Translations under genes and position numbers: made by a program | In this document: positions 38,976-62,859 of the stretch, in pieces | How the letters are laid out: the number at the start of each line of letters is the position of its first letter | Numbering within the stretch: position 1 is the stretch's first letter | From: Candidatus Wildermuthbacteria bacterium | GTDB lineage: Bacteria; Patescibacteriota; Minisyncoccia; Minisyncoccales; PEYH01 | Assembly: GCA_037445205.1 (NCBI GenBank) | Contig: JBBIKX010000001.1 | Coordinates: forward strand, 8,767 to 72,766 | Direction: 5' to 3' | DNA length: 64,000 nucleotides | Notes under the pieces: model-generated | The model's input: only the letters and a program-made list of their open reading frames with translations | Told to the model about the DNA's origin: nothing | The model's database searches: none

Positions 38976-39049
38976 TAGCGGGGTGGACCAGTAGTAGGTC
39001 GCGGGTCTCATAAGCCCGAAGCGTTGGTGCAATTCCAGCCCCCGCTACC
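38976..39049 (+). tRNA. tRNA-Met (CAU), initiator-like; CCA is encoded
   Basis: Manual fold: acceptor agcgggg/ccccgct, D-stem gacc/ggtc, anticodon stem cgggt/gcccg (three G:C pairs), loop ctCATaa, T-stem gttgg/ccagc. Confidence 0.85.
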
Positions 39050-39084
39050 AGTTTAAAAATAAAAAATTTTAATTTTTCTCTGTG

Positions 39085-39156
39085 GCCGGTGTAGCTCAGT
39101 GGCAGAGCAAACGTTTCATAAGCGTTGGGTCGTTGGTTCAATTCCAACCACCGGCA
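39085..39156 (+). tRNA. tRNA-Met or tRNA-Ile2 (anticodon CAU), elongator-type
   Basis: Acceptor gccggtg/caccggc, D-stem gctc/gagc, anticodon loop ttCATaa, T-arm gttgg-ttcaatt-ccaac. Confidence 0.85.
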
Positions 39157-39175: not shown

Positions 39176-39250
39176 GGACCCATGGTGTAGCCCGGTTAAC
39201 ACATCTCCCTGTCACGGAGAAGATCAGGGGTTCAAATCCCCTTGGGTCCG
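39176..39250 (+). tRNA. tRNA-Asp (GUC)
   Basis: Acceptor ggaccca/tgggtcc, anticodon stem tctcc/ggaga, loop ctGTCac, T-loop ttcaaat, discriminator G. Confidence 0.88.
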
Positions 39251-39253
39251 CAA
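39235..39253 (+). repeat. Direct repeat copy 1 (aatccccttgggtccgcaa), the 3' end of tRNA-Asp; attL-like
   Basis: A 19/19 identical copy is at 40465-40483. Confidence 0.9.
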
Positions 39254-39305
39254 TACGAGATTTGTCAAAGATTCTGTTTCGCAATCAACGCGGAAGTGAC
39301 AATTT

Positions 39306-40373
39306 ATGAAAATTTCTGATTTAAATTTTAGTAATTTCAATAGACAAATTAAATTTTCAATGAAAGCAATACTAAGCGATTTTAAATATTTCTATTTATC
39401 GATTTTTTTCTTTGGAATTCTTTTGTTTTTCATTCCTGAAATTTGTAGCGCTAATTTCCTTATAGGAGGATTTTTTATGTATAGTTTCTCTTTGTTGGCG
39501 CCCGTTATTTTCACGGGCGTTTGGGCCATAGAAGCCTTAACTATCAAGAATAAATTAGGGGGGACGCCACAAAAAGCACTATTTACTGCTTTAGTGGTAA
39601 ATTTGGCCACCAGCCTATCGGGCTTTGTTTTGGTTAAAAAAAACTTCTTGGCGGAATACACCCTATATAACGAATCTCTTACATTAATGATTTTTTTCCT
39701 TCTATCTGTTTTTGTTGAAATGTTAATGTTGCATTTTTGCTATAGAGAAGAATCTTGGCATAAAGTAATTATTGCTAGCTTTTTAATGAATCTGAAATCT
39801 TACTTTTTTTTAGCGTTTTTCTTGATAGGAGATTTTACAATCATAGGCGGGGCTATTATTTTAGTTATTGTCGTCCCCTATTTTTTCACAAAAGCTTTTA
39901 GGATGTTAGCCCCGGACAGAGAGTTTTTAAAATTTTTTAAAATAAGATCAGGCATCTTAATTCATTTCCTTTCCATTGTTCTAATCGGTTTGGTGTTTAT
40001 AGGAACCATAAAGGCGATAGATAAAGCGTTTCTTAAGCAAAGAAGAGAGGTGATAAAAGAGCATGAGGTAATGTCTAACATGCTTCAGATAAGCTCCAAG
40101 GCAGAATTGATCTATGCATACAAAGGAAGTTATGAATCATTAAATTGCGACTATGACGAAGAAATAAAAAGTGCTTGCAAGAATATTGAAAAGAAGACAG
40201 GCGCCAGGCTCACTATTCATACATCTGAAAACAGATATTGCGCCTATATTAAATTAATTTATTCTGAAAAATGGTATTGCGCAGATAATATTTCTGGACT
40301 TATCCCTGGGAAAATTAATATTAATCCCTCTATTTTGGGGTATTGTGATGGTAAGACTTTTATTTGTCCATAA
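39306..40373 (+). CDS. Polytopic membrane protein with a Cys-rich C-terminal domain (cargo of the tRNA-Asp-flanked insert)
   Basis: 355 aa, about 7 TM segments. C-terminal NCDYDEE...CAYIKL...YCADN...YCDGKTFICP. Confidence 0.6.
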   Translation: MKISDLNFSNFNRQIKFSMKAILSDFKYFYLSIFFFGILLFFIPEICSANFLIGGFFMYSFSLLAPVIFTGVWAIEALTIKNKLGGTPQKALFTALVVNLATSLSGFVLVKKNFLAEYTLYNESLTLMIFFLLSVFVEMLMLHFCYREESWHKVIIASFLMNLKSYFFLAFFLIGDFTIIGGAIILVIVVPYFFTKAFRMLAPDREFLKFFKIRSGILIHFLSIVLIGLVFIGTIKAIDKAFLKQRREVIKEHEVMSNMLQISSKAELIYAYKGSYESLNCDYDEEIKSACKNIEKKTGARLTIHTSENRYCAYIKLIYSEKWYCADNISGLIPGKININPSILGYCDGKTFICP

Positions 40374-40464
40374 ATATTAGCTTATTTGTAAGAATTAGAT
40401 GTGTTGTCCACAATTTTTTAGAGTAAAAATAATTGATTAATTTTTCCATCGGTATCAGATTATT

Positions 40465-40483
40465 AATCCCCTTGGGTCCGCAA
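40465..40483 (+). repeat. Direct repeat copy 2 (aatccccttgggtccgcaa); attR-like duplicate of the tRNA-Asp 3' end
   Basis: Perfect 19-bp match to 39235-39253, about 1.2 kb downstream of the tRNA. Confidence 0.9.
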
Positions 40484-40505
40484 CGATACAAATTTCTTAC
40501 CTTAA

Positions 40506-40531
40506 AGCCGCGCTCCAGCGTGGCTTTTTTT
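40506..40531 (+). terminator. Rho-independent terminator (agccgcgc-tcca-gcgtggct-ttttttt); likely the original tRNA-operon terminator
   Basis: An 8-bp stem (one G:U pair), tetraloop and a 7-T run. Confidence 0.75.
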
Positions 40532-40589
40532 GGTTGAAATTTTTTTTGATTCTGATAGATTGAAAAAATAACCAAAAGGAGGTGAGACA

Positions 40590-41588
40590 GTGTCTTGCGA
40601 TACAGCCGTTATCGTGAATGTGCAGGCGGGCGCGGGAATGACTCGCTGGAAGTTGGCGCATCTTATGCGCCAGTTAAACCGCATTCTTTCTGTGCCCAAG
40701 AGTTGTGTCTGGCTGACTCGGGAAACCGGCGAGAGCAGCGCCACATCCCTGGCATCTTTTGCCCAAAGCAGAGGGGCCAAAGCAGTGATTGTCTTTGGCG
40801 GAGACGGCACGGTTCATCAGGCAGTAAACGGCCTGAAACTGCCCGATCCTTCAATCTCTGTTGGCATTGTGCCCTGCGGTACGGCCAACGTGGTTGCTTC
40901 CTGCCTTGGAATGCCAAGAAATGTCAAAGCGGCGCTGGAAGTCATAAGGGCCGGAATGACAAGAAAGATCGATCTGGGAATCCTGGAGGGAGATGGCCTT
41001 CCAAGATACGCGGTTTCCACGCTAAGCGTGGGACTTGACGCGATGATAAACGAACTGGCGCATCGTGTTAAGCCCCTGTTTCGGAAATACCATCTGCCAT
41101 CCATCTTGGGCTACATTCCGCCTCTTCTTAGATACACTCTTAATGAAGTTCCGCTCTACGATGTAGCTGTCAAAAAGGATGGATTGGTTTTTTGCGAAAG
41201 GATATCCTTTCTGGCAGTAACAAACACTCCATGGTATGGAGGCGGATTGGTGGACAGAACTGCCAAGCTTGACGACGGGCTGTTTAACATGATATGCGCC
41301 AGAAAGATCAGGTCCCGCGATCTTCCCTGGTGGATGTTTCAGATGTGGCAGGGAAATCACATCTATTATCCCAAGGTTTTTCTGCCCTGCTCTTCGTTTT
41401 CAGGATTAAGCATAAGTTCTGACTTTCCCTTGCCCGCGCAGATTGACGGACAGATTCTGCCCGCCCGGAAGAACATCGCAATCTCTGTCGTTCCCCGCCT
41501 CCTGCAGGTTTTCGCACCTTTGCCCCAACCAGAAAGAACAAAGCATTCTGGTTGGGGTTGTTTTTTTGATATGTCCAGGTTCAGATAG
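40590..41588 (+). CDS. Diacylglycerol-kinase catalytic-domain lipid kinase (YegS/BmrU-like), in GC-rich island B
   Basis: 332 aa with GTG start and SD AGGAGGTG 5 nt upstream. Motifs VIVFGGDGTVHQAVNGL (the GGDGT signature) and IVPCGTANVVA. GC is much higher than the flanks. Confidence 0.75.
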   Translation: MSCDTAVIVNVQAGAGMTRWKLAHLMRQLNRILSVPKSCVWLTRETGESSATSLASFAQSRGAKAVIVFGGDGTVHQAVNGLKLPDPSISVGIVPCGTANVVASCLGMPRNVKAALEVIRAGMTRKIDLGILEGDGLPRYAVSTLSVGLDAMINELAHRVKPLFRKYHLPSILGYIPPLLRYTLNEVPLYDVAVKKDGLVFCERISFLAVTNTPWYGGGLVDRTAKLDDGLFNMICARKIRSRDLPWWMFQMWQGNHIYYPKVFLPCSSFSGLSISSDFPLPAQIDGQILPARKNIAISVVPRLLQVFAPLPQPERTKHSGWGCFFDMSRFR

Positions 41589-41591
41589 ATA

Positions 41592-41620
41592 TTGACCAAA
41601 ATATTCTTTTATGATATAAT
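41592..41620 (+). promoter_or_regulatory. Consensus sigma70 promoter TTGACC-17-TATAAT inside island B
   Basis: TTGACC at 41592-41597 and TATAAT at 41615-41620. It is followed by ttggatatccTAAGGAGGTG. Confidence 0.65.
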
Positions 41621-41647
41621 TTGGATATCCTAAGGAGGTGATGCGTG

Positions 41648-41815
41648 ATGAAGGCGGGTATAGTGATTTTCCGGCATACACAAGTAGAAACGCTGCAGGC
41701 GACGGTTAACGCGTTTCTCAAGGTTCACGCTCCACATATGGAGAACCTTGAGCATCAGCTGGTAGTGACTCCAGACGGCACTATCGTCTTGACCCTGCTT
41801 TATCGGGCTAAGTAG
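41648..41815 (+). CDS. Small hypothetical protein (55 aa), island B
   Basis: SD TAAGGAGGTG at 41631-41640, ATG 7 nt later. Translation MKAGIVIFRHTQVETLQATVNAFLKVHAPHMENLEHQLVVTPDGTIVLTLLYRAK*. Not in the ORF track (under 60 aa). Confidence 0.5.
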   Translation: MKAGIVIFRHTQVETLQATVNAFLKVHAPHMENLEHQLVVTPDGTIVLTLLYRAK

Positions 41816-41837
41816 GGTTCGTAAGGAGGGAGGAACG

Positions 41838-42101
41838 ATGCGTAAGCTCTTTGCGGCGATTGTCGGACTCTACCGTCGGCTCTGGATGATTGAGCCCCGC
41901 CGTTTCAAACGGGGACAAATCATCCAGTTCGAAGACTGGCGCGATGGCATTAGAGTTGCCAAAGCCAGATACCTGGTTCTCGGCAATACACCCTCCGAGA
42001 AGAGGTACGTCCTGGAGGGTGTTGGGCCCGGCAACAAGGGGAGGCGCGAGCGCCTTCGCTTCCGCTGGGTTGACAAACACGCACATTTGGTGCGCGGCTG
42101 A
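41838..42101 (+). CDS. Small basic hypothetical protein (87 aa), island B
   Basis: SD AAGGAGGG at 41823-41830, then the ATG. A strong terminator follows. Confidence 0.55.
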   Translation: MRKLFAAIVGLYRRLWMIEPRRFKRGQIIQFEDWRDGIRVAKARYLVLGNTPSEKRYVLEGVGPGNKGRRERLRFRWVDKHAHLVRG

Positions 42102-42111
42102 AATGCCTGTT

Positions 42112-42155
42112 CCGCCCGGGACTAAGGAGGAGTTCCGGGCGGTTGTTGTTTTTTG
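42112..42155 (+). terminator. Rho-independent terminator (ccgcccgg...ccgggcgg, ttgttgttttttg)
   Basis: An 8-bp perfect GC stem with a T-rich tail. The loop contains taaggagg. Confidence 0.7.
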
Positions 42156-42204
42156 ATGAAGTTTCTGGTATCGTATCAAGTATCGCACATTGGGAGGTGG
42201 AACG

Positions 42205-42348
42205 GTGCACAAATGGGTAATCTTTGCGGTAGTGGTGATCCCAAGCATTCTCATCGGTTCCCTTATCTGCCTTTTCCAAGGAAAGGGCAGAAGAGTGTGG
42301 TCCTTCGCTAAGGGGAGAGTCTTTGCTTGGGCGGAAACGGATTGGTGA
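42205..42348 (+). CDS. Tiny single-TM protein (47 aa, GTG start), island B
   Basis: SD GGGAGGTGG at 42192-42200, 6 nt before the GTG. Translation VHKWVIFAVVVIPSILIGSLICLFQGKGRRVWSFAKGRVFAWAETDW*. Confidence 0.45.
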   Translation: MHKWVIFAVVVIPSILIGSLICLFQGKGRRVWSFAKGRVFAWAETDW

Positions 42349-42371
42349 ACACAATCCTCTTGGCACTTGTT

Positions 42372-42407
42372 AACCGGCGCATCTTCTGATGGGCCGGTTC
42401 ATCTTTT
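42372..42407 (+). terminator. Hairpin aaccggc...gccggtt with a weak U tail; probable right-end terminator of island B
   Basis: A 7-bp stem with a 14-nt loop, followed by catcttttaacaaaaaa. The sequence turns AT-rich after this point. Confidence 0.4.
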
Positions 42408-61983: not shown

Positions 61984-62859
61984 TTATGCTGGTTTATAGA
62001 CACGGTTTACCAGCACTTGGCGGGCAAACGTCACCCTCCATGTCGGGCCTACGAATCCGACTTCCCGGAGCAGTTGTTCCCATTGCGGAATTGCGAGGAA
62101 GGTGTATGTTCCTTCTTTTCCCTTTCTTTGTATTTCAAGGGCGTGACGAAGTATGCTTGTGCCCTGAAGAATTCGGCTAAAATCCCGATTTCTTATGTAG
62201 GGCAGAGGATTGAGCATGTCAGGAAGAGAAGCGACAAACACCCATTGGAAGTGAACGTTTTGTCTGGGAGTAGACCAGACGATATGTCCTCCGGGCTTGA
62301 GCACCCTATGCATCTCTCTGAAAACTTCCCTCATGGCCCTTATGCCTTTTTCGCTTCGAAAGTCAGTTGCATAGGGGATAACTAAATTTGCGATAATTCC
62401 ATCAAAGTGGTTATCGTCGAAGGGAAGTTCTTCGCCAAGATGAGCGAAAACAAGATGCATGGGCAACGTGGGGTGAAGAGATTGCGTTTTCCGCGCCGGA
62501 TCAAGAACTATATCCAGACCAACTACCAATTTGATAGTTCTGCCGGATTTGTTCCATGCCAAGAGAGCCATCTTGGCGGGTCCGCAGCCTACATCCAGCC
62601 AAACTTCGTTAGCTTTGGGCTGGATTAATCCGGCGACTGTCGTTGTAAGGTTGTGGTAGGGTCTTGCCTTTTCCAGGTTTTTGTAAATCCTTGCGTAATC
62701 CCTCCAAAACGCCAACTCTTGTCCCCAAGAGCGGATCCTTCCTCTTGTGAAGGGCGAAAGCCCGTTCTCATTTGCTTCCAGCCACTCTTCTATGCTCTCC
62801 GTGCTTAATCCTTCTCCAAAGCACGGCCCAAGGATCTCTGATATGCTTTTGGTTTTCAT
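61984..62859 (-). CDS. Class I SAM-dependent methyltransferase (GC-rich cassette E)
   Basis: 291 aa. Motif I VWLDVGCGPAKMALL and post-I/II motifs. SD AAGGAGGT sits 5 nt before the ATG. GC is much higher than the flanks. Confidence 0.75.
   Translation of the reverse strand: MKTKSISEILGPCFGEGLSTESIEEWLEANENGLSPFTRGRIRSWGQELAFWRDYARIYKNLEKARPYHNLTTTVAGLIQPKANEVWLDVGCGPAKMALLAWNKSGRTIKLVVGLDIVLDPARKTQSLHPTLPMHLVFAHLGEELPFDDNHFDGIIANLVIPYATDFRSEKGIRAMREVFREMHRVLKPGGHIVWSTPRQNVHFQWVFVASLPDMLNPLPYIRNRDFSRILQGTSILRHALEIQRKGKEGTYTFLAIPQWEQLLREVGFVGPTWRVTFARQVLVNRVYKPA

Follow-up and report, generated by a model that had tools for sequence, protein, structure and literature searches.

A segment of 1,230 bp stands between a tRNA-Asp gene and the terminator of its operon in Candidatus Wildermuthbacteria bacterium (assembly GCA_037445205.1, contig JBBIKX010000001.1, positions 8,767 to 72,766 of the forward strand). 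This stretch of 64,000 nucleotides is called the window below, and positions are counted from its first letter unless a contig is named. The segment, 39254-40483, is probably an integrative element of the large serine recombinase (LSR) type that has been reduced to a cargo gene and its attachment (att) sites at the 3′ end of the tRNA-Asp gene. That it is a remnant of integration can be held with more confidence than this statement taken whole, and the balance tips modestly towards an LSR, rather than a tyrosine integrase, as its origin. The host is a Parcubacteria-type member of the candidate phyla radiation (CPR). The window has a GC content of 0.387, and its open reading frames (ORFs) comprise ribosomal-protein operons and core genes (among them rseP, proS, mreB, gatCA, pheST, and gyrB). 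In a GatA search of genome contigs, the nearest GTDB representatives were metagenome-assembled genomes (MAGs) of Parcubacteria/Paceibacteria with at most 59% identity.

A repeat of the tRNA-Asp 3′ end flanks a single-gene segment

It was found that the 19-mer AATCCCCTTGGGTCCGCAA occurs on the + strand at exactly two sites in the window, at the end of the tRNA-Asp gene (39235-39253) and 1.2 kb downstream (40465-40483). No third copy exists in the window even when three mismatches are allowed (expected number, 0.03; two or more copies in 0 of 100 shuffles), and the chance expectation of a 19-mer match inside 5 kb is about 5e-8. The first copy covers the last three nucleotides of the T-loop, the 3′ strand of the T-stem, the 3′ acceptor strand, the discriminator, and three nucleotides beyond. 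The tRNA-Asp gene is intact and closes a tRNA-Met/tRNA-Met/tRNA-Asp cluster; its 3′ end, AATCCCCTTGGGTCCGC, is identical in the relative L021, where it is present once. It can be read as the attB-derived left arm of attL. At the second copy, neither ARAGORN nor Rfam (E up to 1) reported a tRNA, and Rfam found just the three tRNAs as RNA families near the insert. The similarity ends sharply at both edges of the repeat, the flanks being alike only at the level of shuffled sequences (59 nt upstream, p = 0.31; 60 nt downstream, p = 0.48). Therefore, the second copy is not part of a tRNA pseudogene or a longer duplicated tRNA, which was the way in which an integration signature might have been mimicked. 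A role of the second copy as a tRNA-like minihelix for 3′ processing was also rejected, since the predicted RNA fold has no tRNA-like shape.

Between the copies lie a 52-nt leader, one ORF for a protein of 355 amino acids (aa), and a 91-nt trailer. The insert encodes no integrase, as its only ORF has no recombinase domain. The preliminary description of this locus had reported the perfect repeat and had described the bracketed segment as encoding only a polytopic, Cys-rich membrane protein. An exact match search reproduced the repeat at the same positions, while the domain searches and tblastn were negative for an integrase and the protein proved to belong to a conserved family. The tRNA-operon terminator had also been placed just past the second copy. 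It is indeed there, with its limits at 40504-40527 plus a T-run instead of 40506-40531.

The segment is missing from a syntenic relative

The order gatA, a small membrane ORF (X), tRNA-Met, tRNA-Met, and tRNA-Asp is kept in many relatives, and the interval from tRNA-Asp to pheS varies among them. In L021, tRNA-Asp is followed by pyrE and then pheST; in L022, GIY-YIG and M23-like genes come before pheST-gyrB. In L018, tRNA-Asp is a synteny breakpoint next to a rearranged miaB-thrS-dnaE block, the genes of which lie about 17 kb away in the window. The MAG or metagenome contigs of several relatives (L019, L020, L024, L025, and L054) break off in or soon after the tRNA-Met/Met/Asp cluster.

An empty site was found in L053 (Logan SRR29396573), a contig recovered by searching with the 208-aa protein X encoded upstream of the tRNAs. 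Its amino acid identity to the window is 67% for GatA, 61% for PheS, and 51% for the DAGK/YegS-type kinase. The gene order is gatC-gatA-X-tRNAMet-tRNAMet-tRNAAsp, a terminator-like hairpin, the kinase gene, and pheS-pheT, with no insert. The comparison that the preliminary description had proposed was thus made, and it gave a tRNA-Asp gene followed directly by the terminator. When positions 39254-40483 were excised in silico, the window became colinear with L053 through the three tRNAs, the T-run, a 'TTGAA(A)TTTTTT' spacer, the ribosome-binding site (RBS), and the start of the kinase gene. Because this virtual excision restores an L053-like order and L021 carries the tRNA-Asp 3′ end once, the 1,230 bp have the character of an insertion that separates the 3′ end of tRNA-Asp from its terminator. 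Site-specific integration at a tRNA gene, the interpretation first offered for the repeat, is upheld by this empty site, by the colinearity after excision, and by homologs of the cargo gene that follow other tRNA genes. The reconstructed empty attB junction reads ...GATCAGGGGTTCAAATCCCCTTGGGTCCGCAACGATACAAATTTCTTACC, the reconstructed attP is CAGATTATT-19mer-TACGAGATTTGTCAAAG, and the junction in a circular attP would be ...CGGTATCAGATTATTAATCCCCTTGGGTCCGCAATACGAGATTTGTCAAAG.

Homologs of the cargo gene lie at other tRNA genes and beside an LSR gene

The cargo family includes seven close homologs with 39-64% identity and nine more loci in JGI metagenomes. In a profile search of 1.8 billion representatives, it formed 38 full-length clusters at E<1e-30. 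About four of the eight informative contexts are directly linked to a tRNA gene, and three tRNA species are involved; this linkage seems to exceed by far what would be expected of a random gene. Rfam found no tRNA fragments on the short cargo-family contigs.

In L009 and L003, a different tRNA-Asp gene is followed by an opposite-strand gene for a 517-aa LSR and then by the cargo gene. The LSR consists of Resolvase, Recombinase, and Zn_ribbon_recom domains, and its stop codon lies inside the tRNA 3′ end. The two LSR sequences are 100% identical, although they come from two different metagenomes, Ga0172362 and ERZ27247973. The cargo gene follows the orientation of tRNA-Asp in L009, whereas it is inverted relative to the tRNA in the same tRNA-Asp/LSR element of L003. 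I compared L009 (1688-3149) with L003 (1-1420). The cargo gene of L009 is surrounded by 201-nt inverted repeats (97% identical) that hold full P-core-P′ sites and the first 55 nt of the gene, and the unique 1,051-bp middle is identical in the two contigs in opposite orientation. One C/T marker within the repeat, L009:1811, travelled with the gene; the outer markers kept their places. Therefore, the crossover took place within a 69-nt interval that holds the core and the P arm. The inversion fits a recombinase-mediated event, homologous recombination within the repeat being the alternative. A second cassette lies beside the first one in L009 (3237-5365). It encodes a 609-aa secreted or membrane protein with DUF2330 and LamG-like parts, and it has perfect inverted repeats of at least 116 nt (up to the contig end) and a diverged copy of the same site module ahead.

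In L004, L005, L011, and L012, the cargo gene begins 37 nt after a tRNA-Val gene on the same strand. It is followed by a GC hairpin and a conserved sequence, AAAATAGGTTCGACTATTATCAATTATT/GCCCAC, with the acyP start codon directly adjoining. Since the tRNA-Val gene ends in GCCCAC as well, a 6-bp repeat surrounds the tRNA-Val cassettes. In L004 and L011, the unit between tRNA-Val and acyP is a single-gene unit of about 1.2 kb with an intact P arm.

L015 combines features of both groups. A tRNA-Ala gene is followed by 47 nt that match the L009 recombinase site with 4 mismatches and encode the last ~15 residues of the LSR on the opposite strand, and then by the cargo gene, oriented like the tRNA, and the right-end motif of the tRNA-Val cassettes. 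The 47-nt match is a scar of an LSR gene. On the right side (2177-2307), a fragment of a tRNA 5′ half precedes a second tRNA-Ala gene that is 95% identical to the first. The 5′ acceptor strand (GGGCCGA) of the second tRNA-Ala is unpaired with its 3′ strand, and the gene resembles a chimeric tRNA produced by recombination between tRNA genes.

In L016 and L017, the cargo family is found inside arrays of small heterogeneous genes parted by repeated junction modules. These stretches (L017, 6714-12303; L016, 1-4282) contain four to six small unrelated genes on the same strand in a layout that resembles a cassette array. Besides the cargo family, they encode membrane proteins, a PsbP-like protein, an HhH-GPD glycosylase, a PEP-utiliser domain, and DUF996. 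The junction modules are mosaics of AAACAGGTTCTAATAT..., AGTTTATTTCCTGACCCA, and AAAAYCCARAAAATCGCCTT with a promoter-like TAGAAT. The L017 array begins after a tRNA-His gene, and the sequence just past this tRNA recurs in the modules. The motifs of the junction modules were not found in the window.

The left junction resembles an LSR attachment site

The T-loop-like motif GTTCRAN served as the anchor for comparing the att sites. Its distance from a central CC is 10 nt in the tRNA (B) arm and 15 nt in the element (P) arm, both in L009 and in L004, which are independent lineages. The short identity block lands exactly at the centre (CC/CGCCAG in L009 and G/CC/CAC in L004). In the P′ arm, which overlaps the last ~20 codons of the LSR gene, the inverted motif GTCAAC is also 15 nt from the centre. 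The attP of these related loci has dyad symmetry and a short identity block. This architecture fits the pattern of serine integrases, for which an outward shift of the outer motif by 5 bp in attP as compared with attB half-sites is reportedly a hallmark.

In the window, the tRNA-Asp T-loop GTTCAAA sits 10 nt from a TC dinucleotide, which would be the crossover site if the attB-type spacing of the LSR-bearing relatives holds. Aligned on this centre, attL of the window (GGG/TC/CGCAATACGAGATTTGTCAAAGATTC) and the L009 site (ACC/CC/CGCCAGACGAGAAAAGTCAACATTTC) are in the same register, and GTCAA of the window begins 15 nt past the predicted centre, the distance that L009 and L015 also show. Beyond the tRNA, the window leader has 15 of 25 anchored identities to the L009 site S1, a score equalled by 0.04% of the window 25-mers (p about 4e-4), and 13 of 25 to L015. 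In the anchored controls against L009, the right arm of the window attR scored 9/25, while the L053 empty site and the left junction of L004 scored 5/25 each. The minus-strand reading of the window, ..ETESLTNLVLR.., can be set against ..EAEMLTFLVWR.. at the C-terminus of the L009 LSR, and 3 of the 7 differing codons are synonymous. Homology to the cargo leader of L003 and L009 starts at 39295. The preliminary description had left it between a decayed and a trans-mobilised element. The likeness of the 40 nt after the tRNA to an LSR 3′ end or P′ scar argues for decay.

At the right end, similarity to the P arm of the tRNA-Val cassettes is limited to the last 12 nt of the trailer (TATCAGATTATT against TATCA-ATTATT), and both stretches abut the core. 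With L004, the window shares only TATCA(G)ATTATT just ahead of the core, and the unanchored alignment of the trailer with the tRNA-Val P arm has p = 0.12.

The recombinase and the sites were also sought elsewhere. A tblastn search of the 64-kb window with the L009 LSR gave no match. Ten window ORFs that are not obviously housekeeping have no recombinase domain, and the remaining ORFs are recognisable core genes. In IMG/VR, neither the cargo-family alignment nor DNA scans for the 19-mer, the tRNA-Asp 3′ 20-mer, and the LSR-site pattern gave a match, and the LSR returned just two N-terminal fragments on unrelated GC-rich phage contigs. These phage-like contigs, L056 (7-354) and L057 (18-428), carry a truncated 125-aa fragment that is 73% identical to the catalytic domain of the L009 LSR, together with restriction-modification and IS1595 genes.

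How the element may have arisen

The history that I favor is as follows. A small element whose attP duplicated the final 19 nt of the tRNA region would have entered the 3′ end of tRNA-Asp by site-specific recombination. The tRNA would thereby have been made whole again at attL, and the original 3′ end would have ended up 1.23 kb farther downstream, at attR, along with the operon terminator. Judging from the related loci, the ancestral element may have been about 3 kb long, in the order of tRNA, core, a P′ arm overlapping the 3′ end of an opposite-strand LSR gene, the LSR gene, the cargo gene in the direction of the tRNA, P arm, core, and host DNA. Such an L009-like element would then have lost the body of the LSR gene and its upstream region by deletion. 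The remains would be the cargo gene, both cores, and about 40 nt of the LSR 3′ end and P′ arm, now joined to the cargo leader. L015 keeps the last ~15 LSR codons between tRNA-Ala and the cargo gene and therefore points to the same kind of deletion route.

Several observations weigh against this history. The sole empty site comes from a fairly distant relative (GatA, 67%). A sister strain of 95-97% identity (SRR11582140) was found by searches with X208 and DAGK homologs; its contig L052 ends inside tRNA-Met and its contig L055 starts at 40526, stopping at the terminator T-run, so that the occupancy of the site is not visible there. The composition of the insert carries no foreign mark, since its GC content is 0.323 and its GC content at third codon positions (GC3) is 0.331, within the range of host genes (GC3, 0.31-0.44). 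In L010 and L006, the cargo homolog is an ordinary gene between a 554-aa ORF and glyS, with no tRNA or repeats nearby. No recombinase was found in the window. The link of the window to an LSR is one short anchored comparison of 25 nt, and unanchored local alignments of the window att flanks with the LSR P and P′ arms were not significant.

Further points on this side speak for a different enzyme. The segment may have been an islet or a prophage brought by a tyrosine integrase to the T-loop-to-3′-end part of tRNA-Asp, with the integrase and nearly everything else deleted later and the likeness to an LSR site being coincidental. An identity block from the T-loop to the 3′ end is reportedly the classic tRNA footprint of tyrosine integrases, and the 19-bp block over the T-loop, T-stem, acceptor, and discriminator is a textbook case. 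The LSR-linked cassettes have much shorter repeats of 6-8 bp, and their P-arm motif GGTTCGAC is absent from the right end of the window. On the other hand, no tyrosine integrase was seen near any of the 17 cargo-family loci; the LSR is the sole recombinase found beside the cargo gene, L015 bears its scar, and the window leader matches the P′ arm in register. LSR systems with direct repeats of 15-19 bp also exist, as in SCCmec. A tyrosine-integrase origin is considered less likely, though it is a serious rival and the foremost of the alternatives.

It is less probable still that the segment is a non-autonomous single-gene cassette that remains mobile. An LSR gene at another place in the genome, or one brought in by another element, would then act on it in trans, with cassettes being exchanged at tRNA 3′ ends. 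The two perfect 19-bp cores, the presence of the family at three tRNA species, the L009/L003 inversion with its identical LSRs and displaced marker, the arrays of L016 and L017, and the contigs of relatives that break just past tRNA-Asp would all suit such a cassette. However, the 64 kb contain no recombinase, the P arm is not recognisable in the window, and the P′-like arm resembles a decaying coding scar.

Finally, a resident membrane gene whose second 19-mer arose by local duplication, slippage, or chance is very improbable: the insert is host-like in composition and some family members are plain chromosomal genes, but chance is countered by the expectation given above and by the shuffles, and duplication explains neither the recurrence of the cargo family next to tRNA genes nor the place of the terminator and spacer, which come directly after the tRNA in L053 but after the second copy in the window.

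The cargo protein and its expression

The 355-aa protein has no Pfam match, including no match to a recombinase domain or N_methyl. The family alignment shows a signal-peptide-like N-terminus (...IPEICSA), a polytopic core (WIIEALTIK, MNLKSYLF, and VPYFF), and a C-terminal domain with five Cys residues that are invariant in the family; the window protein has six. An AlphaFold2 model from a seven-sequence alignment (mean predicted local distance difference test score, pLDDT, of 64) has about six transmembrane helices, this part being poorly modelled. Its C-terminal part consists of a 65-residue helix (191-255), a short helix, and four strands at a pLDDT of 86-92. The whole model had no Foldseek match in the PDB. 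The last ~140 residues alone match more than 2,000 proteins, many of them 137-160 aa long, and 2 of 7 tested short homologs (137-159 aa) have the Pfam N_methyl prepilin motif. The ectodomain may accordingly be read, from the model and these homologs, as pilin-like and Cys-rich. As in type IV pilin-like proteins, to which the last ~140 residues are homologous, it combines a long helix, a small β-sheet, and conserved Cys residues, and the topology of the model agrees. Unlike them, it is fused behind a signal peptide and a membrane domain of about six helices and lacks a prepilin cleavage motif. The product would be exported or anchored in the membrane and would carry a disulfide-rich, pilin-like ectodomain, and it may have a role at the cell surface or related to type IV pili, possibly in keeping out phages or competitors.

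In the public annotation, the gene call (298 aa) begins at M57 and drops the conserved signal-peptide region (39306-39476) found in all homologs. The family is better matched by a start at 39360 or by one at 39306, for which an RBS-like GGAAG is present.

A promoter-like TTGATT-17-TATAAA can be read before the first tRNA-Met. No promoter-like site was predicted between tRNA-Asp and the ORF (39254-39305), and no terminator was predicted between tRNA-Asp and the cargo gene. The cassette has no terminator of its own ahead of the second copy; the fold of 40374-40535 gave the operon terminator hairpin alone. Having neither its own promoter nor its own terminator, the cargo gene probably shares a read-through transcript with the tRNA operon, which would end at the displaced tRNA terminator.

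Layout of the locus and the GC-rich stretch downstream

The features of the locus are listed in Table 1.

Table 1. Features of the tRNA-Asp locus, with positions in the window
Feature	Position	Strand	Basis or remark
Two tRNA-Met(CAT) genes	38977..39156	+	ARAGORN, Rfam; upstream part of the tRNA operon
Intact tRNA-Asp(GTC) gene	39176-39250/51	+	ARAGORN; Rfam tRNA, 67.9 bits
Direct repeat copy 1 (attL core), AATCCCCTTGGGTCCGCAA	39235..39253	+	Exact repeat search
Predicted crossover dinucleotide TC	39247..39248	.	10-nt attB-type spacing after the T-loop motif in LSR-bearing relatives
Whole inserted segment (element and one repeat copy)	39254..40483	+	1,230 bp; GC 0.323
P′-like half-site, read as a scar of the LSR 3′ end	39254..39294	-	Anchored comparison with L009 and L015
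Cargo gene, 355 aa	39306..40373	+	RBS-like GGAAG 10-14 nt before ATG
Trailer, 91 nt, presumed P arm of attR	40374..40464	+	Position
Direct repeat copy 2 (attR core)	40465..40483	+	Exact repeat search
Strong intrinsic terminator of the tRNA operon, 10-bp stem and T-run	40504..40534 (hairpin 40504-40527)	+	Terminator prediction, RNA fold
DAGK_cat/YegS_C lipid-kinase gene, native right neighbour (B′ side), not part of the element	40590..41588	+	Pfam; synteny with L053

The preliminary description had also proposed that a GC-rich island begins after the terminator and that the tRNA 3′ end is a repeated integration hotspot. The shift in GC content after the terminator is real. The kinase gene has a GC content of 0.516 and a GC3 of 0.553, and the next two ORFs reach 0.509 and 0.596 (orf56) and 0.583 and 0.682 (orf87), respectively, against a GC3 of about 0.39 for core genes. 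The hotspot found no support in the form proposed. The kinase gene has a positional, syntenic ortholog in L053 (51% amino acid identity) and a 95% identical copy in the sister strain, so that a second integration event at this tRNA is rejected as its origin. The stretch 40590-42400 is compositionally foreign, possibly by xenologous replacement or as a local compositional oddity.

The two-gene module that follows the kinase (41645-42101) is the truly variable part downstream of it. A strong promoter-like site lies immediately before 41633, the exact point at which the sister-strain contig L055 departs from the window. L053 lacks the module; its kinase gene and pheS are only about 90 nt apart. 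Between the kinase and pheS (41592-42142), the window has a near-consensus promoter, TTGACC-17-TATAAT with TG (41592-41620), ORFs for 56 aa (41645-41815) and 87 aa (41838-42101), neither of which has a Pfam match, and a terminator with a 12-bp stem (42112-42142). Another compositionally atypical gene lies in the GC peak at 62-63 kb (0.469). It encodes a class I S-adenosylmethionine-dependent methyltransferase (61984-62859, - strand; GC, 0.486; GC3, 0.50) and stands between a gene for a seven-transmembrane histidine kinase and dnaE.

Relation to known elements and significance

Elements that keep att sites after losing their recombinase are known from other bacteria. The cis-mobilizable elements (CIMEs) of streptococci and the ccr-less pseudo-SCC elements of staphylococci, related to the staphylococcal cassette chromosome (SCC), are short, have direct repeats of the att core, have no recombinase of their own, and derive from or are kin to autonomous elements with the same target site. 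SCC itself relies on a large serine recombinase, sits at the 3′ end of a housekeeping gene between repeats of 15-19 bp, and grows by tandem accretion. The window has both cores and no recombinase, and its relatives include an LSR-bearing element (L009) and a scarred intermediate (L015). It differs in that the target is the 3′ end of a tRNA gene and not fda or rlmH, that the segment is 1.23 kb with a single gene, and that the host is a member of the Parcubacteria (CPR). Most likely, the locus is an integrase-less, att-flanked element of a known type, and what is new is a single-gene cassette of 1.2 kb with a serine-recombinase ancestry at a CPR tRNA gene.

With tRNA islands and prophages of tyrosine integrases (P4-like), it shares a repeat equal to a tRNA 3′ segment, a tRNA restored at attL, and the old 3′ end at attR. 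However, no integrase lies by the tRNA in the window, the one recombinase associated with the family is of the serine type, and the segment is smaller by an order of magnitude. The sites of serine integrases (LI, Bxb1, and phiC31) are matched in the related loci by a motif 5 bp farther out in the P arms than in the B arms and by a recombinase with Resolvase, Recombinase, and Zn-ribbon domains, whereas the window shows a P′-like half-site only and no recombinase gene. The extra inverted full sites of L009 and the inversion of its cargo are untypical of serine-integrase behaviour. Integron gene cassettes are similar as single promoterless ORFs that rely on an upstream promoter, and the arrays of L016 and L017, which are distant contexts of the cargo family, are cassette-like. 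They differ since the window has no IntI, attC hairpin, or attI and its boundaries are tRNA-derived.

A wider possibility, which I regard as unlikely, is that Parcubacteria have an as yet undescribed LSR-based cassette system in which single-gene units of about 1 kb, mostly for membrane or surface proteins, are inserted, inverted, and stacked at tRNA 3′ ends and expressed by read-through. If true, it would be a functional analogue of integrons with a different chemistry and target, and the window cassette would be one unit of it, possibly mobilisable in trans.

The mobile elements of CPR bacteria (Patescibacteria) are poorly known, and no serine integrase is known to be established for them. 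Full-text searches of the literature turned up no description of tRNA-targeted serine-recombinase elements in CPR/Patescibacteria. Serine integrases are useful tools for genome engineering, and the locus and its relatives supply a concrete set of attB, attP, and recombinase from an uncultivated lineage. If the segment is merely a dead remnant, it is an ordinary genomic scar whose history is well resolved. It is also an example of the extreme reduction of an integrative element that would leave a functional cargo gene driven by a tRNA promoter. The cargo proteins form a new family of surface proteins, with a pilin-like ectodomain on a polytopic anchor, that moves horizontally and may bear on pilus-dependent attachment or phage defence in these episymbionts.

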